From Deltaproteobacteria bacterium (GTDB taxonomy: Bacteria; Desulfobacterota; BSN033; UBA1163), in contig JBBIOI010000003.1 in NCBI GenBank assembly GCA_037443425.1, positions 43,807 through 75,806 on the forward strand: DNA of 32,000 nt. Reading direction: 5' to 3'. Below the pieces are notes generated by a model. It did no database searches. It saw nothing but the letters and a program-made list of their open reading frames with translations, and had not been told where the DNA came from. Shown piece after piece: positions 8,305 through 31,760 of this stretch (the stretch's first letter is position 1; each line of letters opens with the position of its first letter). A program made the position numbers and the translations under genes.

Positions 8305-8964
8305 TTATCCCTCTTTATACCTCAAATCTTTAATTGGACATACATCACATTTCGGCACCTTTCTACAAAAATTCTTTCCAAGATGAACCAGAAGGGCATG
8401 ATATTCATTGAATAACTTTTCATCATATGTTAGATGAGTCATAAATATTTCTTGGATCTCATTATAAGAAGCACTAACAGGTATGATATTATGCCTTGAT
8501 AGGATTCTTTTTGTATAAGCATCTACCACAAAGATAGGCTTTCCTAATGCATATAATATAATACTATCGGCAGTCTCGGGTCCGATCCCATTTACCATAA
8601 GTAGCTTCTTTCTCAATATTTCAAGGTTTTCAAGCTTCATTTTATCGAGACTTCCATTATACTCCTCAAAAAGAAAATTTATAAATGCCTTTATTCTATC
8701 TGCCTTTATTCGATAATATCCTGAGGGCTTTATCAAACGAGCCAATTTTATTTTACTTATTCTCTTTATACCTTCAGGATTTAAGAGTGCCTCTCTCTTT
8801 AGATTATCTATTGCCTTTTCGACATTATTCCATGATGTATTCTGTGTAAGTATGGCACCTATTATAACCTCAAAGGGGGAATCCGCAGGCCACCAATTTC
8901 TTGGTCCAAATTCTTTATAAAGTCTATTAAAAATCTCCCTTAGTATGGATTTCATTGACTTCAT
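8305..8964 (-). CDS. Endonuclease III-related HhH-GPD protein (COG2231-like) with C-terminal Fe-S Cys motif
   Basis: 219 aa. HhH segment LLMVNGIGPETADSIILY followed by D (VVDAYTKR). C-terminal CRKVPKCDVCPIKDL. Its start overlaps the upstream permease stop (ATGA). Confidence 0.7.
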   Translation of the reverse strand: MKSMKSILREIFNRLYKEFGPRNWWPADSPFEVIIGAILTQNTSWNNVEKAIDNLKREALLNPEGIKRISKIKLARLIKPSGYYRIKADRIKAFINFLFEEYNGSLDKMKLENLEILRKKLLMVNGIGPETADSIILYALGKPIFVVDAYTKRILSRHNIIPVSASYNEIQEIFMTHLTYDEKLFNEYHALLVHLGKNFCRKVPKCDVCPIKDLRYKEG

Positions 8965-17905: not shown

Positions 17906-19000
17906 ATGCCTACAATAAAGAACTTTTTTGCAACACGATGGGGGATCATCTCGGTCGGAGCTTTTATCGGTATTTTTGCCCCTTTTCTGCAGAAGTGGGG
18001 AAACCCTCCAAATATGGGCATCTGTGTAGCTTGTATGGAAAGGGATATTGCAGGTGCATTGGGACTTCATAGGGCAGCTGTTGTTCAATATATGCGCCCT
18101 GAAATTATTGGATTTGTTCTGGGGTCCCTGATCGCAGCTTATTTGTTTAGGGAATTTCGATCGAGGGTTGGCTCAGCACCTATCGTCCGGTTTGTTCTGG
18201 GTGCATTTGCCATGATCGGTGCATTGGTATTTTTAGGTTGTCCCTGGAGGGCAATGCTTCGATTGGCTGGGGGTGATGGCAATGCAATTTTTGGTCTTCT
18301 TGGGCTCATCGGGGGGATATGGATTGGAACTCTTTTCCTAAAGGCTGGATATAATCTCGGAAGATCCCAAAAAACTCATACCTCAGTAGGATGGTTACTG
18401 CCATTAATCATGCTCGGTTTTCTTGTTCTAATGTTTATCTTTCCCCAGATTCCAGGCCAAGAAAAAAGTGGAGTATTATTTTATAGCGTAAAAGGCCCAG
18501 GTTCCATGCATGCCCCACTTATCGTATCGCTCCTGATTGGTTTGCTTATTGGATTCCTGGCACAGAGAAGTCGGTTCTGCACAATGGGAGCTATTAGAGA
18601 CTTCATACTCTTTAAACAGACTCACCTCCTCTCTGGAGCAATTGCCCTCGTTGTAGTGGCATTCATTATGAACCTTATTCTGGGTCAATTTCATCCAGGA
18701 TTCGTAAAACAACCCATTGCTCACACGATGAGCCTCTGGAATTTCGCTGGCATGGTTCTGGCCGGGTTAGCCTTTGCCCTTGCAGGAGGATGCCCGGGAA
18801 GGCAACTCTTTCTTGCAGGTGAAGGAGATGGTGATGCAGCTGTATTCGTATTAGGTATGATCGTGGGTGCAGGTTTTTCTCATAATTTTGGCCTGGCCAG
18901 CTCCCCGGATGGAATTGGCCCCTATGGGATTCATGCTGTGATTATAGGACTTCTTACCTGTCTTTTTATTGGGTTCACCATGCGAAAAGAAGTTGCTTAA
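17906..19000 (+). CDS. yedE: YedE-family putative selenium-metabolism membrane protein (YedE/YeeE permease fold)
   Basis: 364 aa and polytopic. Conserved Cys motifs: NMGICVACMERD, LGCPWR, SRFCTMGAIRD, AGGCPGRQ. Confidence 0.8.
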   Translation: MPTIKNFFATRWGIISVGAFIGIFAPFLQKWGNPPNMGICVACMERDIAGALGLHRAAVVQYMRPEIIGFVLGSLIAAYLFREFRSRVGSAPIVRFVLGAFAMIGALVFLGCPWRAMLRLAGGDGNAIFGLLGLIGGIWIGTLFLKAGYNLGRSQKTHTSVGWLLPLIMLGFLVLMFIFPQIPGQEKSGVLFYSVKGPGSMHAPLIVSLLIGLLIGFLAQRSRFCTMGAIRDFILFKQTHLLSGAIALVVVAFIMNLILGQFHPGFVKQPIAHTMSLWNFAGMVLAGLAFALAGGCPGRQLFLAGEGDGDAAVFVLGMIVGAGFSHNFGLASSPDGIGPYGIHAVIIGLLTCLFIGFTMRKEVA

Positions 19001-19013
19001 AAAGGAGGATAAG

Positions 19014-19232
19014 ATGAGCAATATCGTTGATGCAAGAGGGCTTTCATGCCCACAACCTGTGCTAATGACTCTTAATGAAATTAAAAGAATAAATAAGGGA
19101 GAAATCGTTGTTCTGGTAGATACAGATACTTCAAAAGAGAATGTCTCACGGGCAGCGATTTCACAGGGATGGTATGTAAAGAGTATCGAACCCGAAGGAA
19201 TTGGATATCGCATTATAATTTCGAAGGAATAA
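19014..19232 (+). CDS. TusA/SirA-like sulfurtransferase (72 aa)
   Basis: MSNIVDARGLSCPQPVLMT... carries the CPxP persulfide-carrier motif. ATG at 19014 has AAGGAGG 6 nt upstream. The ORF-track start at 18969 overlaps yedE and has no SD. Confidence 0.8.
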   Translation: MSNIVDARGLSCPQPVLMTLNEIKRINKGEIVVLVDTDTSKENVSRAAISQGWYVKSIEPEGIGYRIIISKE

Positions 19233-19306
19233 CAATGGCAATTTTCAAATCTCTAAAGAAGAAATCAGCAAAAAACATATTTGTGTCGTTATGAAAGGAG
19301 AAAAAC

Positions 19307-20587
19307 ATGGCAGCAAAAGATTATCATGCTATGTGGAAAGATTTGGGGCTTAATTTAGAGGCTCACGATAAGCTTCTTGCTGTTCTTGGGCAAGCCTATA
19401 AAGACATCTATATGACACAGGAGAATCGTCCCAAAGGGATGCAATATCTTGACTTTGTGATCTCTGAGGCTCATGGGCTTCGGATTGAGGAACTGATGGA
19501 AACGAAGAAGAAAGGGAATAAAGTGATCGGAACCTTCTGTGTCTATGTGCCTGAAGAATTGATCCTGGCAGTTGGAGGAACCTGCGTGGGTCTCTGTGCA
19601 GGCGCTGAAATTGGAATTGATGAAGCCGAAAAAGTGCTTCCGCGCAATACCTGCGCTTTGATCAAGTCCTTTATGGGGTTTAAACTGGCAGGCTTATGTC
19701 CTTATATCCAGGCAAGTGATCTCGTTGTAGGGGAAACGACCTGCGACGGAAAGAAGAAGGCTTACGAGATTCTCAATGATTATAAAGAGACCTATGTGAT
19801 GGAAATACCCCAGATGAAGACAGACAGGGATAGGGCGCTCTGGAGAGGTGAAATCGTTCAATTTAAAGAGAAAGTTGAGCAACTTACCGGCAGAGAGATC
19901 ACCGTAGAAAATTTACGTCAGGGCATCAAGATCGCGAACGATAAACGCCGAGCTCTCCAGCGATTGAGTGCTCTTCGTAAAGCAACTCCTCCTCCTATCT
20001 CAGGTCTCGATGCTCTCCTGGTTAATCAAATTGCTTTTTATGACGATCCCCTTCGGTTTACCAGAAGCGTGAATGATCTCTGCGATGAACTGGAGGAACG
20101 CGTTAAGAAAGGCATTGGGGTTAGCAAAAATGGGACGCCGCGGATTTTGGTTTCTGGTTCACCGATGGCAGTTCCCAATTGGAAGGTCCCCTATATCATC
20201 GAAACGAGTGGAGCTATCGTGGTGGCTGAGGAGTCCTGTGTAGGAGAAAGAAGCACGAGGGACCTGGTGAAAGAGGATGGAGAAACTCTTGATGAGATGA
20301 TCGACGCCATTACCGATCGCTATATGAAGATCGATTGTGCCTGCTTTACCCCGAATGTGGAACGGACAGACCATATTCTTGAACTTGTAAAGGATTTCAA
20401 GGTAGACGGAGTAATTCACTATAGCATCCAGTTCTGCACCCCTTATACCGTGGAGGCTTATAAAGTCGAAAAAGCCCTTCAGCAAAAGGGAATTCCCATG
20501 CTCAAGATCGAAACCGATTACGGAATGGAGGATGTAGGTCAATTAAAAACACGAATCGAAGCTTTTCTGGAGATGCTGAAAAAATAA
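19307..20587 (+). CDS. Double-cubane-cluster-type anaerobic reductase (DCCP-like; 2-hydroxyacyl-CoA dehydratase / benzoyl-CoA reductase BcrB-HgdB fold)
   Basis: 426 aa. N-terminus MAAKDYHAMWKDLGLNLEAHDKLLAVLGQAY. Multiple conserved Cys: FCVYVPEE, GTCVGLCAG, NTCALIK, ETTCDGKKK, ESCVGE, CACF, QFCTPY. It is single-subunit and sits next to its activator gene. Confidence 0.7.
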   Translation: MAAKDYHAMWKDLGLNLEAHDKLLAVLGQAYKDIYMTQENRPKGMQYLDFVISEAHGLRIEELMETKKKGNKVIGTFCVYVPEELILAVGGTCVGLCAGAEIGIDEAEKVLPRNTCALIKSFMGFKLAGLCPYIQASDLVVGETTCDGKKKAYEILNDYKETYVMEIPQMKTDRDRALWRGEIVQFKEKVEQLTGREITVENLRQGIKIANDKRRALQRLSALRKATPPPISGLDALLVNQIAFYDDPLRFTRSVNDLCDELEERVKKGIGVSKNGTPRILVSGSPMAVPNWKVPYIIETSGAIVVAEESCVGERSTRDLVKEDGETLDEMIDAITDRYMKIDCACFTPNVERTDHILELVKDFKVDGVIHYSIQFCTPYTVEAYKVEKALQQKGIPMLKIETDYGMEDVGQLKTRIEAFLEMLKK

Positions 20588-20588
20588 G

Positions 20589-21350
20589 ATGAAAGCGGCA
20601 GGAATCGATATTGGTTCGAGAACGATTAAACTTGTGGTGGTGGAAAAAGGAGAGATTGTGGCCTTCTTTATTACTGACACAACTCACGACCCACTTGAGC
20701 AATGTAAAAAGCTGATGGATAAGGTCTCTTTTGACAAGATTCTTGCCACAGGTTATGGAAGACACTTCTTTGAAACCCACTTTGATGCACCTACGGTGAC
20801 AGAGATCAAGGCTTTTGCCCGTGGAGCAAAAGCACTTTTCCGCGGTTGTCGGACCATACTGGACATTGGTGGGCAGGATACAAAGGCAATTGCACTGGAT
20901 GAGAAGGGGAATGTGGTCAAATTTGAAATGAATGATCGCTGTGCCGCTGGAACAGGTATGTTTCTTGAAGTCATTGCCAAGACATTGGGTTACGATCTGG
21001 AAGAGTTCGGGAAAGAAGCATTAAAAGCAGATGGCAACATCCAGATCAATAGCATGTGCACGGTTTTTGCTCAATCGGAGGTAACGTCTCTTTTAGCTCG
21101 TAGACAAAAGAGAGAGGACATCGCCAGGGGGATACACATGGCAATCTTAAATCGAACCCTTTCTTTGCTGAAACGGGTTTCTACAACACCCGATTTTGTT
21201 TTTGCGGGAGGGGTTGCAAAAAACCCCTGCATCAAACATTTTCTGGGTGATGCACTTGGGTTCGAACTGAAGGTTCCTGAAGATCCTCAGATGGTGGGGG
21301 CCTATGGAGCGGCAATGATTGCTCAGGAATCAGAAAAAACTTCTTTATAG
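20589..21350 (+). CDS. HgdC/BcrAD-BadFG-type ATPase (archerase-type electron activator)
   Basis: 253 aa. ASKHA-fold N-terminus GIDIGSRTIKLVV, DIGGQD, cluster-bridging Cys motifs MNDRCAAGTG and NSMCTVFAQSE, and C-terminal FAGGVAKN. Begins 1 nt after the reductase stop. Confidence 0.85.
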   Translation: MKAAGIDIGSRTIKLVVVEKGEIVAFFITDTTHDPLEQCKKLMDKVSFDKILATGYGRHFFETHFDAPTVTEIKAFARGAKALFRGCRTILDIGGQDTKAIALDEKGNVVKFEMNDRCAAGTGMFLEVIAKTLGYDLEEFGKEALKADGNIQINSMCTVFAQSEVTSLLARRQKREDIARGIHMAILNRTLSLLKRVSTTPDFVFAGGVAKNPCIKHFLGDALGFELKVPEDPQMVGAYGAAMIAQESEKTSL

Positions 21351-21382
21351 GAGATGAAATGATTGAGGATTAAAAGAGTATT

Positions 21383-21691
21383 GTGATTGGAACAGTAGGG
21401 CATGTTGACTATGGAAAGACAACCTTTGTTAAGGCTCTGATAGGGATCGATACAGACCGATTGAAGGAAGAAAAAGAGAGAGTAATGAGCATCGAACCTG
21501 GATTTGCCTATCTGAAGCTTCCCTCAGTTAAGGTTGTCTCAATAGTTGATGTTCCTGGTCACGAGAAATTTATCAGAAATATGTTCAGAGGCATATCCGA
21601 GGTCGATTCTGTTCTTTTAGTGGGAACAACCAAACGCATAGAACAACATCTGATTTTTATATTAGGAGGAGATCATGGATCGATGGGATAA
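21383..21691 (+). pseudogene. selB: Remnant of the selenocysteine-specific elongation factor gene selB (N-terminal GTPase fragment only)
   Basis: GTG start with no [44 protein letters not shown]...[14 protein letters not shown]...DSVLLV covers G1-G3 of SelB. Similarity then decays, with no NKxD motif and no domains II-IV or SECIS-binding winged helices. The ORF runs into the SD and ATG of the next gene. Confidence 0.7.
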
Positions 21692-22862
21692 CGTTTATAA
21701 GGAAATTTTAAATGTTTATTACTATATCTGGAAAAAACCTTGGCCTATTTGGGCAGGAGCAATAGCATTGGCGTTAGCAAATATTTTTATGTTTGCCTAT
21801 GCACGTGCAATAGGAGTATTTCCTCAGATGGCGATGTGGGGTAGCTGGGTCTATAATCTTCTCGGCATAAAGGTAGATGCACCATTTTTAGCTTATCCTT
21901 TAACCCCTCCTCATCTCGACGTTCATAGTATGATTGATTTTGGTATAATCTTTGGTGTTTTAATATCAGCTCTCATTTCAGGAGAGTTTAAGATTAGAAA
22001 AGATGACCTATATGGATATCTTTTAGCAATTGTAGGAGGAATCTTGATGGGTTTTGGGACTGTTTTGATGCCACCATGTAATGTAGGGGGCTTTTACTCA
22101 GCTACAATGGCACTCTCTTTGAGTGGACCAGTTGCAGCCATAGGACTTCTCTTAGGTGCTTACTTAGGAGGGATTTTTTTAAAGTGGCAGGCAATAAGAG
22201 CAGCTACTTCAGTAGTATTCAATGATTCAACTGCAGATGAACCTATAAAAAAAGTATCTTCCACTATCCAACCTTATATAGGTTATGCGATATCTATTAT
22301 CCTTGCTATTGTAGTTATTACATATTTTTGGCTTGGAAAAACAAAGTTCTCTGGTTTACTGCTTTTTGGGACCTTTTTCGGAATCGTATTCCAGCGCTCA
22401 AGACTATGTATGGCAGGGGCATTTCGTGAAATCTTCGTAAGTAGAAGATGGAAGAGCATGAAATGGGTGCTTTTTAGTCTCGCAATTGGCACTGTAGGAT
22501 TTGCAATCCTTAAATCCCAGGGGTATCAACAAATGCACTTTATTCTTCCATTGGGATTGCATACAGTGATTGGTGGATTCATCTTTGGAATTGGAATGGT
22601 TTTAGCCGGGGGTTGTGGGGCTGGAATTCTTTGGCGATCTGCGGAGGGTTATGTTCGTGCATGGCTTGCTGTCGTTTCAGGCATGTTAGCATCTGGGTCA
22701 TGGGTCTTATTGTATGGATATCATGTAGGTGAAGGATGGCTTTATGGAAAGCCATTCTCTTTAGGACATCGCTTCGGGTGGTTTGGGGGAGCATTGCTAA
22801 TTTTTCTGTTTCTTACATGTTTTTACATCTTAATAACATATGTGGAAGGTAAGAGAAAATGA
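21675..22862 (+). CDS. YeeE/YedE-family sulfur-compound (thiosulfate-type) permease, second paralogue
   Basis: 395 aa and polytopic. Cys motifs [32 protein letters not shown] is AGGAGG. Confidence 0.75.
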
Positions 22863-23113
22863 AAAAAATTAAAACTGTAAAATTGAATGACAGACATTAT
22901 CAGGTTGATATGAGAGGATGGATGTGCCCTTATCCAAAATACGCTGTTGAGACGTTAATCAAAAAACTTGAAGCACAGAATCAAATGGACATGCTTGTAG
23001 ATTGCCCTTCAGCTATTGAAGATGTGCCAAAATTAGCAAAAGAAAGAGGCTGTAAGGTTCCCGAGATAATAAAGATTGGAGGCGGTGAATGGAAGATTGT
23101 CATTATTAAATAA
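22859..23113 (+). CDS. TusA/YeeD-like sulfurtransferase (84 aa)
   Basis: DMRGWMCPYPKY carries the CPxP motif. There is a 4-nt ATGA overlap with the preceding permease gene, which is the YeeE/YeeD-type arrangement. Confidence 0.75.
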   Translation: MKKIKTVKLNDRHYQVDMRGWMCPYPKYAVETLIKKLEAQNQMDMLVDCPSAIEDVPKLAKERGCKVPEIIKIGGGEWKIVIIK

Positions 23114-23228
23114 CTATTCTTGATGAAGTATACCCCATAAATAAGGGATATGTTTTCAACTCACATCTCTCCCCCCTTAGAAAAAAAGGGTGGTGAGATG
23201 GATTATATAAAAATTAAGGAGGGCTACT

Positions 23229-23807
23229 ATGAAAGAGATCGATTGCAGGGGATTGGCCTGCCCCCAGCCAGTTTTAAATACCAAAAAGGCCTTAGAAGAG
23301 GGTCAAGAGGAGTTAATCGTTATTGTAGATAATATAGCTGCCAGGGACAATGTAGAAAGATTTGCAAGAAGTCAAGGAGCAATGGTAAATATTGAAAAAA
23401 AAGATAATAACTTTTATCTTCATATTCAGAAAAAATCGAGTTGCGAGATGCCCGAGACGAGATCCAAGGCAGAAAAGATTGTTGTTTATATAAACTCAAA
23501 TCTTCTCGGAGTAGGTGACGAAACTCTTGGCAGGATTTTAATGAGATCATTTTTAAAAACTATCCTCGAATTGGAACCAAAACCTTCTAAAATGATATTT
23601 ATTAATTTAGGGGTCCATTTAACAACAGAGGGTTCTGAGGTTCTTGATACACTAAAATTGATTTCTGAAAAAGGTGTCGAGATACTCTCGTGTGGAACAT
23701 GTCTGGACTTTTATGGTTTAAAAGAAAAGCTTAGAGTAGGAGTTATTTCAAACATGTATGATATTGCAAAATCTTTAATGGAGGCAGACCAATTGATCAG
23801 ACCTTAA
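23229..23807 (+). CDS. yedF: YedF-type selenium-metabolism protein (N-terminal TusA-like domain fused to a DsrE-like domain)
   Basis: 192 aa. MKEIDCRGLACPQPVLNTKKALEE (CPxP). The C-terminal half contains IFINLGVHL...SCGTCLDFYGL. SD AGGAGG lies 7 nt upstream. Confidence 0.8.
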   Translation: MKEIDCRGLACPQPVLNTKKALEEGQEELIVIVDNIAARDNVERFARSQGAMVNIEKKDNNFYLHIQKKSSCEMPETRSKAEKIVVYINSNLLGVGDETLGRILMRSFLKTILELEPKPSKMIFINLGVHLTTEGSEVLDTLKLISEKGVEILSCGTCLDFYGLKEKLRVGVISNMYDIAKSLMEADQLIRP

Positions 23808-23827
23808 TCAATCGGTTATTAATATTT

Positions 23828-25009
23828 ATGAAGAAAGATAAAAGTATAATCTATTTTGACAATGCTGCAACTTCTTGGCCCAAACCTCCCCAGGTTTTAG
23901 AGGCAATAATCAGATTCATGAATGAGATTGGAGCAAATCCCGGTCGTTCTGGACATTCACTATCAATTGAAGCAGCAAGGATTATATATGAAACACGAGA
24001 AGCATTGGCAACTATTTTTAATATAAAAGATCCATCAAGAATTGTCTTTACATTAAATGCTACAGAATCCATCAATCTGGCTTTAAAAGGCTTATTAAAG
24101 CCAAACGACCATGTGATCACGAGTAGTATGGAACATAACTCCGTTATGAGGCCTTTAAGATATCTCGAAAGACAAGGCTTAGAAGTAACTAAAATTCCCT
24201 GCTCTCAGAAAGGATTCTTAGACCCTGATGATTTAGAGAAAAAAATAAAACCCAATACAAAAATGATCATCCTCAATCATGCCTCAAATGTCACTGGAAC
24301 ACTCCTGCCTATTCGAGAAGTTGGAAAGATTACAAGAAAATATAATCTAATTTTTCTTGTAGATGCTGCCCAGACTGCAGGGTCTTATCCCATTGATGTC
24401 CAAAATGATTCAATTGACCTCCTTGCATTTACAGGTCACAAAAGTCTTTATGGTCCACAAGGAACAGGGGGATTAGTTATAAATTATCGCATTAACGAAA
24501 AAGATATAATTCCGCTTAAACACGGAGGAACTGGAAGTCGTTCAGAATATGAGGAACAACCTGATTTCTTCCCCGATCACCTCGAAAGTGGAACCCCTAA
24601 CAGTGTAGGGATATCTGGGCTCTTATCAGGTGTAAAATTCGTCCTTGAGACTGGGATTGATAAAATTAGAAAACACGAGCTTGATTTAACAGAAAGATTG
24701 TTAGATGGATTAAGCCAATTTCGCCAAATTAAGATCTATGGACCTCAAAACATTGACCAGAGAATTTCGACAATCTCTTTTAATGTAGAAGGATTTTCTC
24801 CTTCATATGTAGCATTATATTTAGAAAGGGAATATGGAATCCTTTCAAGGGCAGGCCTTCAATGTTCACCATCGGCTCATCGAACAATCGGAACATTTCC
24901 AGATGGAACTGTTCGCTTTAGTTTAGGTTATTTTAATAATGAAGAACAGATTGATAAGGCAATTGAGGCGCTTAAAAGTTTGATTGGGAAAAAGGTGAAT
25001 AATGTCTAA
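23828..25009 (+). CDS. Class-V PLP aminotransferase-fold cysteine desulfurase / selenocysteine lyase family protein (short-N-terminus clade)
   Basis: 393 aa. IYFDNAATSWPKP, PLP-lysine motif FTGHKSLYGPQGTGGL, and a C-terminal loop with LQCSPSAHR. Confidence 0.8.
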   Translation: MKKDKSIIYFDNAATSWPKPPQVLEAIIRFMNEIGANPGRSGHSLSIEAARIIYETREALATIFNIKDPSRIVFTLNATESINLALKGLLKPNDHVITSSMEHNSVMRPLRYLERQGLEVTKIPCSQKGFLDPDDLEKKIKPNTKMIILNHASNVTGTLLPIREVGKITRKYNLIFLVDAAQTAGSYPIDVQNDSIDLLAFTGHKSLYGPQGTGGLVINYRINEKDIIPLKHGGTGSRSEYEEQPDFFPDHLESGTPNSVGISGLLSGVKFVLETGIDKIRKHELDLTERLLDGLSQFRQIKIYGPQNIDQRISTISFNVEGFSPSYVALYLEREYGILSRAGLQCSPSAHRTIGTFPDGTVRFSLGYFNNEEQIDKAIEALKSLIGKKVNNV

Positions 25010-25229
25010 GGGGGTAATACTTTTCCCATCTATCCACTATGTTATTCAAGCTGAAAAACTGATCAAAGAAAAAGGCCTATTCTTTGACCTCATACCTGTC
25101 CCTCGCTACCTTAGTTCTGATTGTGGTGTTTGCATACTTTTCGAATGGGAAAAAAGGGATATTATATTAAATGTTTTAGATGATGCAGGTCTCAAGATCG
25201 AAGGCATCCATCAAATAAAAGAGGAATAA
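25002..25229 (+). CDS. DUF3343 protein (putative Se/S carrier-like)
   Basis: 75 aa. ILFPSIHYVIQAEKLIKEKGLFFDLIPVPRYLSSDCGVCILF matches the DUF3343 pattern. There is an 8-nt overlap with the desulfurase gene. SD is AAGGTG. Confidence 0.75.
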   Translation: MSKGVILFPSIHYVIQAEKLIKEKGLFFDLIPVPRYLSSDCGVCILFEWEKRDIILNVLDDAGLKIEGIHQIKEE

Positions 25230-25237
25230 TAATATAA

Positions 25238-25260
25238 AGAAATGCGTGAATTGCATTTCT
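25238..25260. terminator. Bidirectional hairpin between the convergent Se/S operon and the Mo-enzyme operon
   Basis: AGAAATGC (25238-25245), a 7-nt loop GTGAATT, then GCATTTCT (25253-25260) form a perfect 8-bp stem with A/T-rich flanks on both sides. It lies in the 52-nt gap between the stops at 25229 and 25282. Confidence 0.5.
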
Positions 25261-25281: not shown

Positions 25282-25806
25282 CTATTTTTTTATTGAAGAT
25301 TTTGATATTGAGCCTACAAAATTTAATATAAACTTAGATTCCTTGGCCTCCTGAATCTTATTTGGAGACTCAAAAGTTAAGGCAAAGGTTGGACAAACCC
25401 GCACGCATGCAGGTTCTAAACCAAATTCAACCCTTTCTGAACATAGATTGCATTTTTCCATCTTCCCATCGCTATTGAATCTTGGTATCCCAAAAGGACA
25501 GGAAATAGCACAACTGTGACATCCAATACATAATTCCCTGTTTACAACTACGGCTCCTGTCTCCACAGCTCTTGTAATAGCCCCTGTGGGGCAAGAAATA
25601 ATACAAGGACTGTCCTCACAATGCAAACAACCTGTCGAAATATATTTTATGTCTGCCTCTGGAAATTCACCATCCTCCACACGATAAATTCTTCTAAATG
25701 AAACCTGACCTTTTTCTGGATAAATATCATTTTGATCCATACAGGCTACAACACACGCACCACATCCTATACAGAGATCCATATTCAGGCAAATTGTCTT
25801 ATCCAT
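25282..25806 (-). CDS. 4Fe-4S ferredoxin-type electron-transfer (beta) subunit of a DMSO-reductase-family enzyme
   Basis: 174 aa from the ATG at 25806, with AGGAGG 7 nt upstream. The track's TTG at 25827 would overlap the alpha-subunit stop. Four Cys groups are present: CIGCGACVVAC, CLHCEDSPCIISCP, CIGCHSCAISCP, CNLC...CVRVCP. Confidence 0.85.
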   Translation of the reverse strand: MDKTICLNMDLCIGCGACVVACMDQNDIYPEKGQVSFRRIYRVEDGEFPEADIKYISTGCLHCEDSPCIISCPTGAITRAVETGAVVVNRELCIGCHSCAISCPFGIPRFNSDGKMEKCNLCSERVEFGLEPACVRVCPTFALTFESPNKIQEAKESKFILNFVGSISKSSIKK

Positions 25807-25823
25807 GGCTTGACCTCCTTTAG

Positions 25824-27971
25824 TCAAACTTTCTCAATCTTGCAAAGAGATGATTTGAAACCAGGGTATCCAGAAAGGGGATCCAGATAATCTGCCTCAA
25901 ACAGTGTATTAACATCTGCATCAGGATGACCATGATACATATGGATTACTCCTGGTTGTACCATCTGAGTAAGATTGGCTTTTACAACAATTGAATCTTT
26001 GGGTGTAGATATACGGATTAAATCATCCTGTCTTATTCCTAAAATAGAGGCATCTTCCGGATTGATATCAGCAGAAGGATGATTTGGTCGAAGGCTCTTA
26101 GTCCAGCTTAGACGAAATGTCCTCGTATGGATAAACATTGGGAGTCTTGACCCTGTATTTAGAATAAAGGGATAGGTCTGAGCAATCTCAGGTGTAGATT
26201 CTTTACTGTACTTCGGCGGTCTGTAAACAGGTATCGCTTCAAAACCCGCAGCACCCTCATACTTTTCAAGGATGGTAGATTTAAATTCCATCTTTCCACT
26301 TGGTGTTTTAAAACCACCGTCCAAATATTTTTTCTCTGAAATCTTCATTGGATTTGGAACAAACATACCACCTGGATACTTCTTAAGTTCAGCTACAGTA
26401 ATGCCACTTGGTTCAAGTATCCAGTCTAAAGAGGCCTCATATCCAGCCTTGAAAAGTGGATCCTCAAGTCCAAGTTTCTCTGCTAAACTATAAATGATAT
26501 CAACATCTGACCTCGAATCGTAAAGCGGGTTAATCGCAGGTTGGGTCAATATAACATAGCCCATTGGATAACAACGAAGTTCACTCCTTTCAACAGATGT
26601 GCACGCAGGAAGGACAATGTCTGCAAATTTACATGTATCTGTCATGAAGATATCGATATTGATAAAAATGTCCAATTTTTGTAAACTTTCTAAAAGACCT
26701 TTCGGGTCAGGCCACATCCTGTAATTCATACCAAAGCCAATGAGGGCCTTGAGTGGATATGGTTTTTCAGAACGAATCTGGAAGGGTATATACATGGCTT
26801 GTGCCTCTTCATCCACAACCTCATTCCATACAGGAAACCTATCTGACCCTATACGTGGAGCCATCTCGCTCCAGGGCCTTGGTTGAATAAATTCATGTTC
26901 ACGGGTAACAAATAAACCAGGTTGATGAATAAAACTCTCTGGTATTACAAGATTCCCTCCATATATATCATAATTACCCGTAAGCCCGATTAGAGAAAAT
27001 ACTGCACGATAGTTTTGGACACCATTGGTATGGTGTACAACAGGGGATGCAGAAGGCATTAAGACAGCCGGCTTTATGGAAGCATACATTCGAGCTGCTT
27101 TTATTATTTTATCAGCGGGCACCCCTGTTAATTGTTCTCCCTTTTGAGGTGTAAACTCACGGACATACTCTTTATACTCGTCAAACCCATAAGAATAGTT
27201 CGAGATGAAATGATAATCATAAAGTTTCTCATTTATTATTACGTTTGCCATTCCCAATGCAAGTGCCCCATCTGTCCCTGGCCTTACCTGGAGATGAAGG
27301 TCTGCGAGGGCAGTCGTGGGAGTTTGTCGGGGATCAACAACAATCAAAACCATTCCCCTTTCCTTAGCCTTTATAATAGCCCTTGCATTTCCAGGATTTG
27401 TATGAAATGGATTTGAACTCCATACAAGGAGACATTTAGTATTTTTAATATCAGGTCGGCCTGGTTTCCCAAAGGTCAGTTTTTGAGCCATTGCTGTTGC
27501 CTGATGGCAGGTACTTGACTCTGTGAGGTAATTTGGAGATCCAAAGGAATGGGCTAAACGCTTTAGATAAGGTCTAAAGTATTTTGTATATCCTGCAAAA
27601 AAAACAACTGATTCTGGCCCATATCTGTTTTTTATTTCATTAAATCTGGATGCAATTATGTCAATAGCTTCATCCCATGATATATGTTCAAATCGCCCTT
27701 CTCCTCTTTCTCCTATTCTTTTTAAAGGCGTCTTTAAACGATCTTCACTATATACATATTGACGCAGTGCCGCCCCTTTAGAACAAAGCGTCCCCATATT
27801 ATAAGGATGTTCTTTACTTCCTTCAACCTTAATGATTTTTCCATCTTTAATATAAAGATCGAGTCCACATTGTGTTGTGGGATCACAGATAGTACATATC
27901 GACTTTCTTATCTCAATACCTGTCTCAGGTGATGGAATCTTTCCTTTCAATAATTTTTCAACCTTTTTCAT
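25824..27971 (-). CDS. Molybdopterin (bis-MGD) oxidoreductase catalytic subunit, DMSO-reductase superfamily, cytoplasmic (no twin-arginine leader)
   Basis: 715 aa. N-terminal Fe-S motif CTICDPTTQCG...LCSKG, candidate Mo-ligand Cys in ESSTCHQATA, and MGD-binding segments (LLVWSSNP, VVDPRQT, and the C-terminal barrel IRISTPKDSIVVKA). There is no RR motif in MKKVEKLLKGKIPSPETG. Confidence 0.85.
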   Translation of the reverse strand: MKKVEKLLKGKIPSPETGIEIRKSICTICDPTTQCGLDLYIKDGKIIKVEGSKEHPYNMGTLCSKGAALRQYVYSEDRLKTPLKRIGERGEGRFEHISWDEAIDIIASRFNEIKNRYGPESVVFFAGYTKYFRPYLKRLAHSFGSPNYLTESSTCHQATAMAQKLTFGKPGRPDIKNTKCLLVWSSNPFHTNPGNARAIIKAKERGMVLIVVDPRQTPTTALADLHLQVRPGTDGALALGMANVIINEKLYDYHFISNYSYGFDEYKEYVREFTPQKGEQLTGVPADKIIKAARMYASIKPAVLMPSASPVVHHTNGVQNYRAVFSLIGLTGNYDIYGGNLVIPESFIHQPGLFVTREHEFIQPRPWSEMAPRIGSDRFPVWNEVVDEEAQAMYIPFQIRSEKPYPLKALIGFGMNYRMWPDPKGLLESLQKLDIFINIDIFMTDTCKFADIVLPACTSVERSELRCYPMGYVILTQPAINPLYDSRSDVDIIYSLAEKLGLEDPLFKAGYEASLDWILEPSGITVAELKKYPGGMFVPNPMKISEKKYLDGGFKTPSGKMEFKSTILEKYEGAAGFEAIPVYRPPKYSKESTPEIAQTYPFILNTGSRLPMFIHTRTFRLSWTKSLRPNHPSADINPEDASILGIRQDDLIRISTPKDSIVVKANLTQMVQPGVIHMYHGHPDADVNTLFEADYLDPLSGYPGFKSSLCKIEKV

Positions 27972-27972
27972 C

Positions 27973-29223
27973 CTATGCGAACCTCCCTAAATATATTTTT
28001 AGTAATTGCTCCTGAATCAACGATGCATTACCTGATAACAAATCCTTCTTTTGTATCAAGCCTTTTATCATGGTATTCTTTATTATTCCTGACTCCTGGT
28101 ATGAATCAAGAATATTAATTCCTGTAAGCAATTTATCCTTCCAGAAAAATTGAATAAATTGCCCTCCATTAGATCGTATTTCCATCCTGTCATAATAAAC
28201 TATATCCCCTATACTGACAAAATCCATTCCCAAAAAATGGGCAATATTATTAGGTATTACTGCTGGTAGGGGCTCAATCTTTCCCAGCATATTCTTTCCT
28301 GCTGTTCGACCTTGGTAACGTGCATTACTTAATAAACCTATAATCTGTGATTTTCCTCCTAAGAGGGTCTTTGCTTGAGAAACATCTCCTGCTGCATAGA
28401 TATCTTTACAGCTTGTTCTCGTATATTCATCAATCAGTATACCTCGGTCTATAGCTACCTTGTCATTAATAAAATCAGTATTTGGCTTTACTCCGATGCA
28501 GATTACTACCATATCTGTTTCAACTACACTCTTATCTTTTAAGTAGACCTTCAAGCCTCTACTGTTCTCCTTTATCTTCTCTATTTCAGTCCCGAGTCTA
28601 AGCCTTATATCTTTCTGTTCTAAACGTTCTTCAATAATCCTGGCGCATTCAGGGTGGGCATTTAAAGGAAAGATATGTCTGGCAATATCTAATAAATAAA
28701 CTTCCATCCCTCGGTTATATAGTACTTCGGCAATCTTAATCCCTATAAGTGAAGCTCCCACAACCAGAGCTTTTTGGGGGTTATTACTTAAAAAAATCTT
28801 CATTCGAATAGCATCTTCAACTGTTCTGACCTGGAAGATCCTTTCAGATTCGATACCTTTTACTGAAGGAATAACTGGACGGGCCCCTGTAGCAATCAGA
28901 CATCTATCGTATTTAAATTCCTTCCCTGAATGGGTATAAACAACCTTATCTTCAGGGTAGATGGCCACTACGGACGATCCAAAATATACATCGACCTTAT
29001 ATCTTTTATAAAAATCTTCTCCTCTTCCGTATGGAAACATTCCATCAAAATCAATCTTATCCGCGAGGTAATAGGTAATAAGCATAGGATTAAAAACAGA
29101 CCAATTATTCTCACTAAAAAGAAAGATCCTACCACTATATCCGTTTTCTCTTAATGCTTTAATACATTCAGCCGAAGCACATCCATTTCCAACGATGACA
29201 ATACTCTTAGGTTCTAAATCCAA
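27973..29223 (-). CDS. FAD-dependent pyridine nucleotide-disulfide-family NAD(P)H oxidoreductase (ferredoxin/rubredoxin reductase or NirB-N-terminal like)
   Basis: 416 aa. TTG start with GAGGT 7 nt upstream. FAD fold IVIVGNGCASAE, second dinucleotide fold ALVVGASLIGIKIAE, and AAGDV. Its stop is 1 nt from the alpha-subunit start. Confidence 0.8.
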   Translation of the reverse strand: MDLEPKSIVIVGNGCASAECIKALRENGYSGRIFLFSENNWSVFNPMLITYYLADKIDFDGMFPYGRGEDFYKRYKVDVYFGSSVVAIYPEDKVVYTHSGKEFKYDRCLIATGARPVIPSVKGIESERIFQVRTVEDAIRMKIFLSNNPQKALVVGASLIGIKIAEVLYNRGMEVYLLDIARHIFPLNAHPECARIIEERLEQKDIRLRLGTEIEKIKENSRGLKVYLKDKSVVETDMVVICIGVKPNTDFINDKVAIDRGILIDEYTRTSCKDIYAAGDVSQAKTLLGGKSQIIGLLSNARYQGRTAGKNMLGKIEPLPAVIPNNIAHFLGMDFVSIGDIVYYDRMEIRSNGGQFIQFFWKDKLLTGINILDSYQESGIIKNTMIKGLIQKKDLLSGNASLIQEQLLKIYLGRFA

Positions 29224-29244: not shown

Positions 29245-29715
29245 TTATTCTCTTAAGGTAGCAATTAATCTTTTAGGTTTTAAAAAAAGGTCAAGGGCAT
29301 CAGAGATATTCTTCACTACAATATCTGCATTTTTAATTGCAGATATAGACAATCCCTCATCCCCTAAAACAGCAATACCGAGGGCAGACTCTTTTAAGAT
29401 AAGCTTATCATTATTTCCATTTCCTATCACAACTGTTTTTTCAAGGGGAAGTCCTTTTATAAATTCAAATTTTCCTTCTTCAGTTGAATCTCCCTCAATT
29501 TTTATAAGCTTGACCCTCAAACCCTTACATTCTTCAAAGGCTGTTCCATATATATCTGAAGTTAAAACATATATTTCAATCAATTCGGAAATCTTATTTA
29601 TCCTCTCTTTTACATCCATCGATACCTTCCCATCAACAGCAAGTGTACCATTTAAGTCAATCACCATATTTTCAATCTCCATATTCGCCCAGCCTGGGAT
29701 GTTTATATTGATCAT
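29245..29715 (-). CDS. HAD-fold protein of the soluble P-type-ATPase-like type (COG4087-like)
   Basis: 156 aa from the ATG at 29715, with AAGGAGGG 4 nt upstream. The track start at 29748 has no SD. Motifs: VIDLNGTLAVDG (DxxGT phosphorylation-type motif) and GNGNNDKLILKESALGIAV (GDGxND-like). Confidence 0.65.
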   Translation of the reverse strand: MININIPGWANMEIENMVIDLNGTLAVDGKVSMDVKERINKISELIEIYVLTSDIYGTAFEECKGLRVKLIKIEGDSTEEGKFEFIKGLPLEKTVVIGNGNNDKLILKESALGIAVLGDEGLSISAIKNADIVVKNISDALDLFLKPKRLIATLRE

Positions 29716-29763
29716 ATTTCCCTCCTTAAACATAAGCAATACACTCAATTTTATCCATCATAA

Positions 29764-30257: not shown

Positions 30258-30271
30258 AAAATTTCTTAAAG

Positions 30272-30344
30272 TGGGCCGTGCGGGACTCGAACCCACGACT
30301 CCCTGCTTAAAAGGCAGGTACTCTACCTCCTGAGTTAACGGCCC
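30272..30344 (-). tRNA. tRNA-Lys (anticodon UUU), 73 nt, no encoded CCA
   Basis: Hand-folded cloverleaf:
- acceptor GGGCCGT/ACGGCCC;
- D stem ACTC/GAGT;
- anticodon stem CCTGC/GCAGG with loop CTTTTAA;
- 5-nt variable loop;
- T stem GTGGG/CCCGC with loop TTCGAGT;
- discriminator A. Confidence 0.9.
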
Positions 30345-31068
30345 ATAACTTCCTTACCTCAAAATATCTATCCATAGGAAGATGCGCAAATAAAACTGCT
30401 CCCATACAAGGAACTACATATTTGATTGACCACTTCTCTCCAACAATATCGAAAAACTCCATACAAGAAGAACATACATGCAAACTATTAGAAATTGAGT
30501 ATGGAATCTTCATTCCATCCTGATAAATAAAAAATTTTGGATTAATAAAATTTGCATGATTTGCTGAATGATATATAAAGATCCTTTCAAAGTCAAAAAC
30601 CTCATTGAATTGAAGACGCTGAAACCATCTTCTGTAAAACTCTACCTCCTTGGGTTTAAACTCATCCCACTTATCGGGCTTTTTCCCCTGATATGTTTCA
30701 GATTCAATCAATGTCGTTATTTCATTAAATGAAGGTAAATAATCTGGTTTGAAGTCTGTTTCTTTGATTACGATTGGATCTCCTAAATAAAAATCCTCAA
30801 TAGGAAGGTTACTAATAATTAGAGTCAAGCCTACCTTCTCTGACTTCCAGTACCACGAAGTCCTTCTCTCACAAACACCATTCCATACTTCTGGAGTTAA
30901 ATAAGAAAGCTCTCTCGAGACTTTCAATGCATGGCAGGGGATCTGAACTTCTTCTCTTTGCTTAATATTATTAAGCTTACGAATCTTTTTAAAACCTTCT
31001 AACCTTTCCTTATCTACCCAATAACAAAATTTTTGATAGCCCATCTTCCCATCAAACCATCTATTCAT
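30307..31068 (-). CDS. Hypothetical protein, no family recognised; the 3' end overlaps tRNA-Lys
   Basis: 253-codon ORF with no obvious SD. Its C-terminal region has HVCSSC...VVPCMG Cys pairs. The last ~12 codons and the TAA stop lie inside the tRNA gene. Coding status is uncertain. Confidence 0.4.
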   Translation of the reverse strand: MNRWFDGKMGYQKFCYWVDKERLEGFKKIRKLNNIKQREEVQIPCHALKVSRELSYLTPEVWNGVCERRTSWYWKSEKVGLTLIISNLPIEDFYLGDPIVIKETDFKPDYLPSFNEITTLIESETYQGKKPDKWDEFKPKEVEFYRRWFQRLQFNEVFDFERIFIYHSANHANFINPKFFIYQDGMKIPYSISNSLHVCSSCMEFFDIVGEKWSIKYVVPCMGAVLFAHLPMDRYFEVRKLWAVNSGGRVPAF

Positions 31069-31148
31069 ATTCTAACCAAAGTTAGCACAAATTTAAATAA
31101 ATTAATCCCCCCTATCATAAACCAGGAATCTTGAATAACATTCCATAA

Positions 31149-31760
31149 TTATTTCTTTTGCTCCTCTTTTTCGAAACATGGAATACAAAGTGTCTTACCA
31201 TCCAATCTTCTTGTTCGAGATTCCATGGTCATCTCACCACATTGTTCACATTTAAGACTCTCTAAAATTCGAGCTGGCTTGGGAATTGGAAAAAAAGGTC
31301 TCCTGATATCAAACATCTCTTCCAATTCAACATCCATATATCTATCTATTAGTGACTTCCTCAATTCTTCAATCCGTTTCCTTTCTTTCTCTGTAATAAT
31401 CCCATCCTTTAATCTCTTGTTCAATCGACGAAGCTCGGCTGCTATCTTACCTGAAATATCTGGTCTCAGAATAGCTCTAAACCCCTTATTTTTATTACGA
31501 TCATAAAAATTGAATGCCATCTTTCCATAATCTTTATGAATGATATTTCCTTTACCAAAAGTACATCCAGTAATAAATTGAATGGCATCAACCCCACACA
31601 TATCCGTTTCAACTATGGCTATGAGATCTGCCTTATCAGGCGGTCCCAATCTTTTTATGGCAAGTTCTGCTACCCTCATCCCTATGGCAAGCCCTGGGCA
31701 AAAATGACCATGAAAAGATATTGTCTTTTTAATCAATTCTTTATCTAAATTCGTAGGCAT
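31149..31760 (-). CDS. FmdE/FwdE-family protein with C-terminal zinc ribbon
   Basis: 203 aa. FHGHFCPGLAIGMRVAE and ETDMCGVDAIQFITGCTFGKGN are FmdE-domain hallmarks. C-terminal CEQCGE...CIPC. Confidence 0.8.
   Translation of the reverse strand: MPTNLDKELIKKTISFHGHFCPGLAIGMRVAELAIKRLGPPDKADLIAIVETDMCGVDAIQFITGCTFGKGNIIHKDYGKMAFNFYDRNKNKGFRAILRPDISGKIAAELRRLNKRLKDGIITEKERKRIEELRKSLIDRYMDVELEEMFDIRRPFFPIPKPARILESLKCEQCGEMTMESRTRRLDGKTLCIPCFEKEEQKK

Follow-up and report, generated by a model that had tools for sequence, protein, structure and literature searches.

A double-cubane cluster protein and its ATPase within a YedE/YedF-type selenium gene cluster of an uncultured deltaproteobacterium

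We analyzed a stretch of 32,000 nucleotides (hereafter the window) from the Deltaproteobacteria bacterium assembly GCA_037443425.1 (contig JBBIOI010000003.1, positions 43,807 to 75,806 of the forward strand), where a gene for a double-cubane cluster protein (DCCP) and the gene for its ATPase lie among genes of selenium transport and trafficking families. All positions given here are those of the window. The gene group occupies positions 17906-25229 of the plus strand and is made of ten co-directional open reading frames (ORFs), ORF1 to ORF10, whose successive junctions are gaps of 13, 74, 1 and 32 nt, overlaps of 17 and 4 nt, gaps of 115 and 20 nt and an overlap of 8 nt. The translations contain three CPxP motifs, SCPQP, MCPYP and ACPQP, and the GC content is 0.40-0.46 over the 18-23 kb interval as compared with about 0.35 in the flanks. 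An earlier sequence-only reading of this DNA had described the packing of the ten ORFs, with these coordinates, junctions and motifs, and all of them were reproduced here; its family calls were likewise confirmed with curated NCBIfam and Pfam models, the exception being its YeeE/TusA permease pair, which is not a TsuA/TsuB thiosulfate importer by any curated cutoff.

The left end of the group encodes a transporter and a small carrier. ORF1 (17906..19000) codes for a 364-aa putative selenium transporter of the YedE family, which scored 489 bits with the seleno_YedE model TIGR04112 (cutoff 200) and matched PF04143. ORF2 (19014..19232) encodes a first TusA-like carrier of 72 aa with the SCPQP motif (PF01206 TusA, 64.5 bits); its start was assigned to the ATG at 19014, and the longest ORF reaches a TTG at 18969. 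This pair of a YedE and a 72-aa TusA recurs in two relatives of the window (loci L082 and L083) and in five loci of the survey described below. The right end encodes three further proteins of the selenium cluster type. ORF8 (23229..23807) corresponds to YedF, a 192-aa protein with TusA and DsrE-like domains (PF01206 and PF02635) that scored 236 bits with TIGR03527 (cutoff 110); the C11-P12-x-P14 residues of its ACPQP motif and the C155-G-T-C158 residues of its CGTC motif were invariant in our alignment A2. The product of ORF9 (23828..25009), with 393 aa, is a class-V pyridoxal phosphate enzyme resembling cysteine desulfurases and selenocysteine lyases. It scored 500 bits with TIGR01977 (am_tr_V_EF2568, cutoff 377), a family named after E. 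faecalis EF2568, and 404 bits with the model NF040779 of the selenocysteine lyase SclA, which has a cutoff of 525, and we refer to it as SclA-like only. ORF10 (25002..25229) encodes a 75-aa DUF3343 protein, a putative Se/S carrier (PF11823 Se_S_carrier, 82.7 bits, cutoff 25). No selD gene was found in the 32-kb window.

Between these two ends lies the reductase pair. ORF3 (19307..20587) encodes a 426-aa protein of the long class of DCCPs, with 519 bits to NF040772 (cutoff 350). It aligned over its full length with the solved Carboxydothermus hydrogenoformans enzyme (PDB 7YYL_C/6ENO_A) at 529 bits, and showed 53% identity with a single gap to the Carboxydothermus orthologue. The cysteines of the motifs FCVY, GLC, NxC, TTCDG, ExxCxGER, CACF and QFC are all conserved, and the alignment to 7YYL_C located the seven-cysteine ligand set of the [8Fe-9S] cluster at C78, C97, C116, C146, C311, C344/C346 and C377; the cluster cysteines were also invariant in a second alignment, A1. 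As judged from these alignments, ORF3 is a bona fide double-cubane cluster protein. ORF4 (20589..21350), which starts 1 nt 3' of the DCCP gene, encodes a 253-aa ATP-dependent electron-transfer ATPase of the archerase or DCCP reductase (DCCP-R) type, hereafter the activase (TIGR00241, 225 bits, cutoff 125). Its scores were 166 bits with the DCCP reductase 7YYL_E and 175 with HadI 4EHT.

Two other identities were considered for ORF3. The sequence-only reading had named as a threat to its proposal that the 426-aa protein might belong to a 2-hydroxyacyl-CoA dehydratase or benzoyl-CoA reductase family; the searches with hidden Markov models (HMMs) placed it in NF040772, with the score given above, and the corresponding dehydratase and reductase models were missed widely (HadC 133 bits vs 700, BzdN 111 vs 454 and BcrC 74 vs 421). 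No second PF06050 gene that could encode a partner subunit was present among the ORFs scanned across the window. The other candidate identity, a selenoprotein, would trivially explain the adjacency of DCCP genes to selB and selD. It was rejected: 79 of 80 orthologues are uninterrupted and the stop codon in the remaining one, in locus L027, is TAA and not TGA at a cysteine. In that locus (L027:4591-5859), from a Thermodesulfovibrio metagenome-assembled genome (MAG), the DCCP gene is interrupted by one in-frame TAA, in place of the Asp257 codon, and is either a pseudogene or affected by a sequencing error.

The middle of the group holds a selB remnant and a second permease/TusA pair. ORF5 (21383..21691), of 102 aa, is a truncated selB: it matched positions 3-81 of the 581 of TIGR00475 with 105 bits (cutoff 242), and therefore retains only the N-terminal residues of the GTPase domain, about 80, and falls short of a full-length SelB with its GTPase domains and C-terminal winged-helix SECIS-binding domains. 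The closest relative, L081, whose DCCP is 94% identical to that of the window, carries in order DCCP, activase, an intact SelB of 662 aa, YedF, desulfurase and DUF3343. The selB relic that the sequence-only reading had placed immediately after the reductase/ATPase pair is real. A blastn comparison with the intact selB of L081 revealed homology only at 21352-21597, resuming at yedF (23229), and the approximately 1.6 kb between the end of the selB homology and yedF correspond to ORF6 and ORF7. The same truncation is found in the NCBI MAG GCA_037444645.1 and in a Logan assembly, both from 99%-identical strains, and because it is present in two independent assemblies it is not an assembly artefact. 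ORF6 (21675..22862) encodes a second permease of the YeeE/YedE family with 395 aa (PF04143, 170 bits), and ORF7 (22859..23113) a second TusA-like carrier with 84 aa and the MCPYP motif (PF01206, 56.9 bits); both fell below all NCBIfam cutoffs. The truncated selB shows that insertion of this second permease/TusA cassette has remodeled the island, the cassette standing in place of about 1.7 kb, or most, of selB.

The proposal that ORF6 and ORF7 are a YeeE/YeeD (TsuA/TsuB) thiosulfate importer was not borne out, as it failed with every curated HMM cutoff (TsuA 129 bits vs 400 and 96 vs 645; TsuB 32 vs 147.5). The best matches were the models for E. coli-type YedE/FdhT and YedF, yet these were also below cutoff (NF033796, 144 vs 350; NF008242, 46 vs 79). 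Elsewhere the permease and the 84-aa TusA form a conserved two-gene unit, found once in locus L170 and twice standing alone. In L170 (7001-15188) the ORF6-type cassette lies beside an activase, a two-subunit enzyme of the HgdB family, YedF, an ArsR regulator and a heavy-metal P-type ATPase. Since the HgdB-family subunits scored 225 bits to NF040772, below its cutoff, and had no NCBIfam match, they are not DCCPs by this measure, and a non-DCCP member of the superfamily is also linked to YedF.

We then surveyed 80 DCCP orthologue loci from species-representative genomes, with 58-87% identity to the window protein and up to 10 kb of flank available on each side (mean of 13.3 kb in total per locus). 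Neighbours were counted by HMM searches of all ORFs, using the window proteins and HMMs made from their matches, and were also clustered de novo. The DCCP sequence is highly conserved, the homologue at rank 120 being still 65% identical, and the loci came from Thermodesulfobacteriota, Nitrospirota, Actinomycetota, Chloroflexota, Armatimonadota, Planctomycetota, Zixibacteria, Bacteroidales, Verrucomicrobia, Cloacimonadota, Myxococcota, Desulfotomaculaceae and others. An activase gene lies directly 3' of the DCCP gene in 61 of the 80 loci. At least one gene of a selenium family was found in 30 of the 80, and in 18 of the 36 where the flank reached at least 15 kb. These were YedF (16 loci), SelD (10), SelB (9), DUF3343 (7) and, with six each, YedE, the TIGR01977 desulfurase and the LysR_Sec_metab regulator (NF040786); they were mostly within 5 kb of the DCCP gene and on the same strand. 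The chance expectation is about 1-5%, and the binomial probability of at least 30 of 80 at a generous background of 5% is 7e-19. When the labels were checked against NCBIfam, SelD and LysR_Sec_metab were confirmed, and 14/14 YedF, 5/5 desulfurase and 5/5 YedE were above cutoff. The enrichment across phyla is strong. The sequence-only reading had named a lack of such linkage among orthologues of this reductase as refuting its proposal, which thus withstood this test as well as that of family membership.

Gene order in these loci is variable. An actinomycetotal MAG (L046) has selD, DCCP, activase, yedE and yedF; L030 has selB, DCCP, activase, yedF, yedE and tusA; and L054 has selB, desulfurase, yedF, DUF3343, selD, DCCP and activase. 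In L002, L014, L016 and L119 yedF directly follows the activase gene in a minimal three-gene unit, which in L119 is accompanied by a divergent gene for the selenium-associated LysR regulator (LysR_Se). Because gene orders differ between phyla, the linkage seems to be maintained by selection rather than to be inherited synteny. Cultured organisms with the linked arrangement include Syntrophus buswellii (L070), Desulfoluna butyratoxydans (L071) and Slackia heliotrinireducens. Short-class DCCP paralogues, which are also members of NF040772, were found adjoining YedF and the desulfurase as well. The relation was also seen from the other side: among 80 YedF-centred metagenome loci, DUF3343 was found in 40, the desulfurase in 29, SelD in 22 and LysR_Se in 7, and a DCCP, short-class DCCP or activase in 11 (8 of 45 among loci of at least 5 kb), so the DCCP system is linked to YedF about half as often as SelD is. 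In at least eight phyla DCCP-activase accompanies selenium gene clusters as an accessory that is conserved but not obligatory, with YedF as its tightest partner, and the data support the view that the reductase pair belongs integrally to a selenium system.

The families to which the proteins belong, the packing of the ORFs in the manner of an operon and the link between DCCP-activase and selenium genes across many phyla are what we observed; from them we infer what such a system might do. Selenium would enter through the YedE-type permeases and be captured by the CPxP cysteines of TusA and YedF in the form of a selenopersulfide, selenotrisulfide or Se(0)-level adduct. The activase would spend ATP to push an electron of very low potential into the [8Fe-9S] cluster, the double-cubane cluster would bring selenium, whether free or held on a carrier, to the selenide level, and YedF, DUF3343 and the lyase-like enzyme could pass the selenide to SelD without freeing toxic HSe-. 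For bulk Se(0)/HSe- the E0' is commonly quoted near -0.7 V and is less negative at trace selenide. So low a potential for the Se(0) to HSe- step would suit an enzyme that ordinary reductants cannot charge. According to the papers on the DCCP, neither dithionite nor Ti(III) citrate reduces its cluster unless ATP is present (PMC7317905, PMC9351452). A reductive role for the DCCP that produces selenide for SelD is plausible. We tentatively favor, as a reading somewhat short of probable, a locus for acquiring and trafficking selenium, in an uncultured anaerobe of low GC content related to Thermodesulfobacteriota, in which the DCCP and its ATPase reduce selenium to the selenide level for SelD. The broader proposal, that the long-class DCCP with its ATPase is a dedicated selenide-generating reductase of anaerobes, acting on YedF/TusA-bound or imported selenium to provide HSe- for SelD, is possible but rather doubtful; candidate substrates would be a Se(0)-level adduct, a selenotrisulfide, selenite or selenocyanate.

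Several considerations weigh against this role. Carrier-bound selenopersulfides are normally reducible by thiols, and an ATP-driven enzyme of ultra-low potential may be unnecessary there. The direction of selenium flow is not readable from gene order. About half of the well-flanked orthologue loci have no selenium gene nearby, and none was found near the DCCP-activase pair in the cultured Firmicutes Carboxydothermus islandicus, Thermincola potens and Desulfosporosinus youngiae. The DCCP of C. islandicus is 96% identical to the crystallised enzyme; its contig has glycine-cleavage genes 3' of the pair and its upstream side ends after 320 bp, and within these limits no tie between the locus of the crystallised enzyme and selenium genes was found. 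Several DCCP paralogues are present in many genomes, and ABC (ATP-binding cassette) transporters, Mo-oxidoreductases and the selenocysteine-assisted organometallic (SAO) locus are further neighbours of DCCPs, which hints at broader or different substrates. Finally, most SelD-positive genomes are without a DCCP (4.7% vs 38% of genomes; Haft 2022, 10.1101/2022.07.06.499078), and a DCCP therefore cannot be a general requirement.

Three other explanations deserve attention. In one of them selenium flows in the reverse direction: the relay formed by YedE, YedF, the lyase-like enzyme and DUF3343, with SelD elsewhere, would deliver selenium to the DCCP itself, where it might bridge a 2x[4Fe-4S]-Se cluster or help to mature or repair the cofactor, and the catalytic substrate would be unrelated to selenium. 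A comparative genomic study reported that 955 of 970 strong NF040772 matches (98%) are in SelD-positive genomes, and offered two explanations, the processing of a selenium compound or a selenium-containing cofactor (Haft 2022, bioRxiv 10.1101/2022.07.06.499078); the cofactor is named there for the co-occurrence across DCCP paralogues, and it would explain why long- and short-class DCCPs and multi-paralogue genomes are all linked to selenium, as well as why the activities of the E. coli-produced enzyme use only artificial substrates. We nevertheless consider it unlikely. The solved structures model the bridge as sulfide, the recombinant enzyme is redox-active though made without a dedicated selenium system, and no precedent for a selenium-bridged Fe-S cofactor is known in biology; moreover, half of the loci are unlinked and no cluster-assembly scaffold genes were seen in the island. 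In a different possibility, DCCP-activase is a self-contained two-gene module acting on another small or organic molecule, with no direct coupling to selenium, and owes its location in the island to a common LysR_Se regulon or to a selenoprotein-rich anaerobic energy metabolism. In a variant of it, the substrate would be an organoselenium or organosulfur compound imported by the SsuA-like ABC transporters of relatives. The pair does occur alone in cultured Firmicutes, and 3' of it in L082 come genes for an SsuA/NMT1-type ABC transporter, another DCCP and a Mo-oxidoreductase. Apart from the activase, no neighbour is commoner than ABC ATPases (23 of 80 loci, a cluster that may be generic), and DCCPs have also been linked to the SAO transporter/MerB-like locus (Haft 2022, 10.1101/2022.07.06.499078). 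Against this, tight same-strand and often overlapping arrangements with yedF, selD or selB recur in different orders and in unrelated phyla, down to the minimal unit with yedF directly after the activase gene, and such arrangements are hard to keep without functional coupling; a module with no such coupling is in our opinion fairly unlikely.

The remaining explanation concerns the element itself. The sequence-only reading had proposed a mixed Se/S operon with the reductase embedded in it, and in a sulfur version the YeeE/YedE permeases would take up thiosulfate or zero-valent sulfur, persulfide would be handed along by TusA, YedF and the desulfurase, and the DCCP would reduce persulfide or polysulfide. 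Every one of the carrier families has sulfur-handling homologues (TusA, DsrE, YeeE/TsuA and cysteine desulfurases), the genes upstream include a ThiF/MoeB-MoaD pair, and DUF3343 has no selenium-specific subfamily (PMC5322559). Yet the selenium-specific equivalogs TIGR04112 and TIGR03527 were passed by wide margins whereas the TsuA/TsuB models failed, what accompanies the pair in other genomes is selD, selB and the LysR regulator associated with selenium rather than cys, sox or dsr genes, and there is a selB remnant inside the operon and an intact selB at the same place in L081. A sulfur operon is quite improbable on these grounds; membership in a selenium system is supported, the Se/S alternative leans clearly to selenium, and the thiosulfate-importer reading of ORF6 and ORF7 fails the HMM cutoffs.

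The relatives of the window are a mosaic of modules: YedE, TusA, a DUF3343-DUF8182 fusion and a Carb_kinase-like protein; DCCP-activase; an SsuA-like ABC transporter; a second DCCP with a Mo-oxidoreductase; SelB; and YedF-desulfurase-DUF3343. The fusion protein has 183 aa (L082:8090-9504; also in L026, L030, L041, L070, L091, L110, L121 and L127), and in L082, L083 and four survey loci it is followed by a 291-aa protein similar to Carb_kinase and the C-terminal part of YjeF. In L082 and L083 this module is placed between YedE-TusA and the DCCP gene; the window is without it, and the TusA-DCCP gap there is the 74 nt mentioned above. The SsuA/NMT1-type transporter (ATPase, permease and binding protein) is directly 3' of DCCP-activase in L082, a 90%-identical relative, at 12064-14797; it was found near the DCCP in 6 of the 80 survey loci and is absent from the window. 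Its presence hints at an imported anionic substrate. Families of the SAO locus, SaoL (MerB-like), SaoC, the SaoX/B/P/A transporter and SaoE, were looked for with NCBIfam in 20 proteins of the window, and none was present; the remaining ORFs were covered by the Pfam scan.

Downstream of the operon, a convergent three-gene operon on the minus strand (25282-29223) encodes an FAD/NAD(P) oxidoreductase similar to PadH and CoA-disulfide reductase, a molybdenum-bis(pyranopterin guanine dinucleotide) (Mo-bisPGD) oxidoreductase and a DmsB-like 4Fe-4S subunit. The Mo-bisPGD protein is FdhA/PhsA-like, below all cutoffs, and appears cytoplasmic, with no twin-arginine signal visible. Homologues of this subunit are present in 10 of the 80 DCCP loci, adjoin selB/DCCP in L033 and overlap the second DCCP gene in L082, and the operon may belong to the functional neighbourhood of the DCCP. 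A hairpin of 8 stem pairs at 25238..25260, called by the scan on the minus strand, separates the end of the selenium operon from this convergent operon and is weak evidence for a possible bidirectional terminator. Similarly weak is a sigma-70-like promoter candidate on the plus strand at 17814..17841 (GTGATA-16-TATAAT, 10/12 matches), 65 nt 5' of yedE; promoter-like sites were not enriched in the region (14 observed vs 21 expected), and neither the promoter scan nor the terminator scan was informative, as their counts did not exceed the shuffle expectation.

Immediately upstream of the operon, on the plus strand at 14928-16140, there are genes for a ThiF/MoeB-like E1 protein, a MoaD/ThiS/SAMP-like carrier and an FmdB-type zinc ribbon protein, and between them and the operon a divergent FAD-dependent protein (PF21688) is encoded on the minus strand at 16147-17508. 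This synteny is kept in L082 and L083, and in L084 and L001 a TIGR01977 desulfurase gene lies between the ThiF and ThiS genes, next to the DCCP gene; such genes could form a thiocarboxylate or selenocarboxylate carrier system. The ThiF/MoeB-MoaD pair was rejected as a part of the operon, being syntenic only in close relatives (L082-L084 and L001) and present in 1 of the 80 survey loci. On the minus strand farther downstream, a 167-aa ORF at 29245-29748 has 29 bits to the HAD/P-domain of heavy-metal P-type ATPases and no Pfam match and is maybe a gene fragment. The only RNA gene found in the window with Rfam and ARAGORN is a tRNA-Lys at 30271-30344. This tRNA-Lys(UUU) shares 38 nt with the 3' end of an ORF of 253 aa that has no family match, and upstream of this ORF, on the same strand, an FmdE plus DksA/TraR zinc-finger protein is encoded (30271-31760, minus). 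The same arrangement, with a DUF8180 gene in addition, is found in L168, a strain whose ORF6 homologue is 99% identical. On the left side of the window, five genes at 8961-14109 (minus) encode an HlyD-like adaptor and duplicated ABC ATPases and ABC-2 permeases of the efflux type, apparently unrelated to the selenium genes.

The locus joins two questions. The papers on DCCPs, which are nitrogenase-like reductases driven by ATP and working at ultra-low potential, state their physiological function as unknown (PMC7317905, PMC9351452), and a 2026 review, in which DCCPs are not mentioned, finds that neither a specific selenium uptake system nor an in-vivo selenium donor to SelD has been established in prokaryotes (PMC13188914). 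Methanococcus deleted for yedE showed no clear phenotype in transport. With DCCP-activase placed in yedF/selD/selB/yedE clusters, what had been a correlation at the genome level (Haft 2022) becomes a hypothesis with named partners, YedF being the first of them, and it can be tested at once, since an orthologue with 53% identity and the reductase of that orthologue have already been purified and crystallised. If the pair generates selenide, this would be the first physiological substrate for the DCCP family and an in-vivo donor pathway of selenium to selenophosphate synthetase. If selenium instead flows into the cofactor, a new selenium-containing metallocluster would be at least as significant.

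Compared with known enzymes, the window pair shares the PF06050 superfamily fold and the ATP-driven electron injection of the BcrAD/HgdC type with 2-hydroxyacyl-CoA dehydratases and class I benzoyl-CoA reductases. These are heteromeric and act on CoA-thioester substrates, whereas the window DCCP is a single subunit with the seven-cysteine double-cubane motif. The DCCP/DCCP-R of C. hydrogenoformans (CHY_0487/CHY_0488; 6ENO, 7YYL) corresponds to the window pair in family, long class, cysteines and downstream ATPase; however, the papers on it never mention selenium and the window pair sits inside a selenium operon. The same enzyme family, NF040772, and the same tie to selenium were reported by Haft (2022), but at the level of genome co-occurrence and SAO adjacency and with no mention of YedE, YedF or DUF3343. 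The ORF6-ORF7 cassette resembles FdhT/FdhU of Campylobacter jejuni and YedE-YedF of E. coli in being a two-gene unit of a permease and a small TusA-like protein, a kind of unit that has been linked to the biogenesis of selenium-dependent formate dehydrogenase (cited in PMC5322559). Its scores, far under the FdhT and YedF cutoffs, indicate a subfamily distinct from both.

The nearest known systems are the clusters of YedE, YedF, selenocysteine lyase, DUF3343 and LysR_Se (PMC5322559; Zhang et al. 2008), with which the window shares the families and the compact YedE-TusA and YedF-lyase-DUF3343 grouping. It differs from the clusters of Lin et al. (2015) in that selD is not within the 32 kb and selB is truncated. 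Table 1 of Lin et al. (2015; PMC5322559) includes a 'CoA-substrate-specific enzyme activase' and a '2-hydroxyglutaryl-CoA dehydratase subunit' among the STRING partners of YedE, YedF and DUF3343; four candidate families were selected in that work and the activase- and dehydratase-like genes were tabulated without comment. The description of the system as new in the sequence-only reading must therefore be narrowed, since the DCCP-SelD link and these partners had been reported, and what is left of it is the integration of the pair into the operon, which had been noted only peripherally. The locus is a variant of the known YedE/YedF/lyase/DUF3343 type of selenium cluster, in which the integration of a DCCP is real and recurrent.

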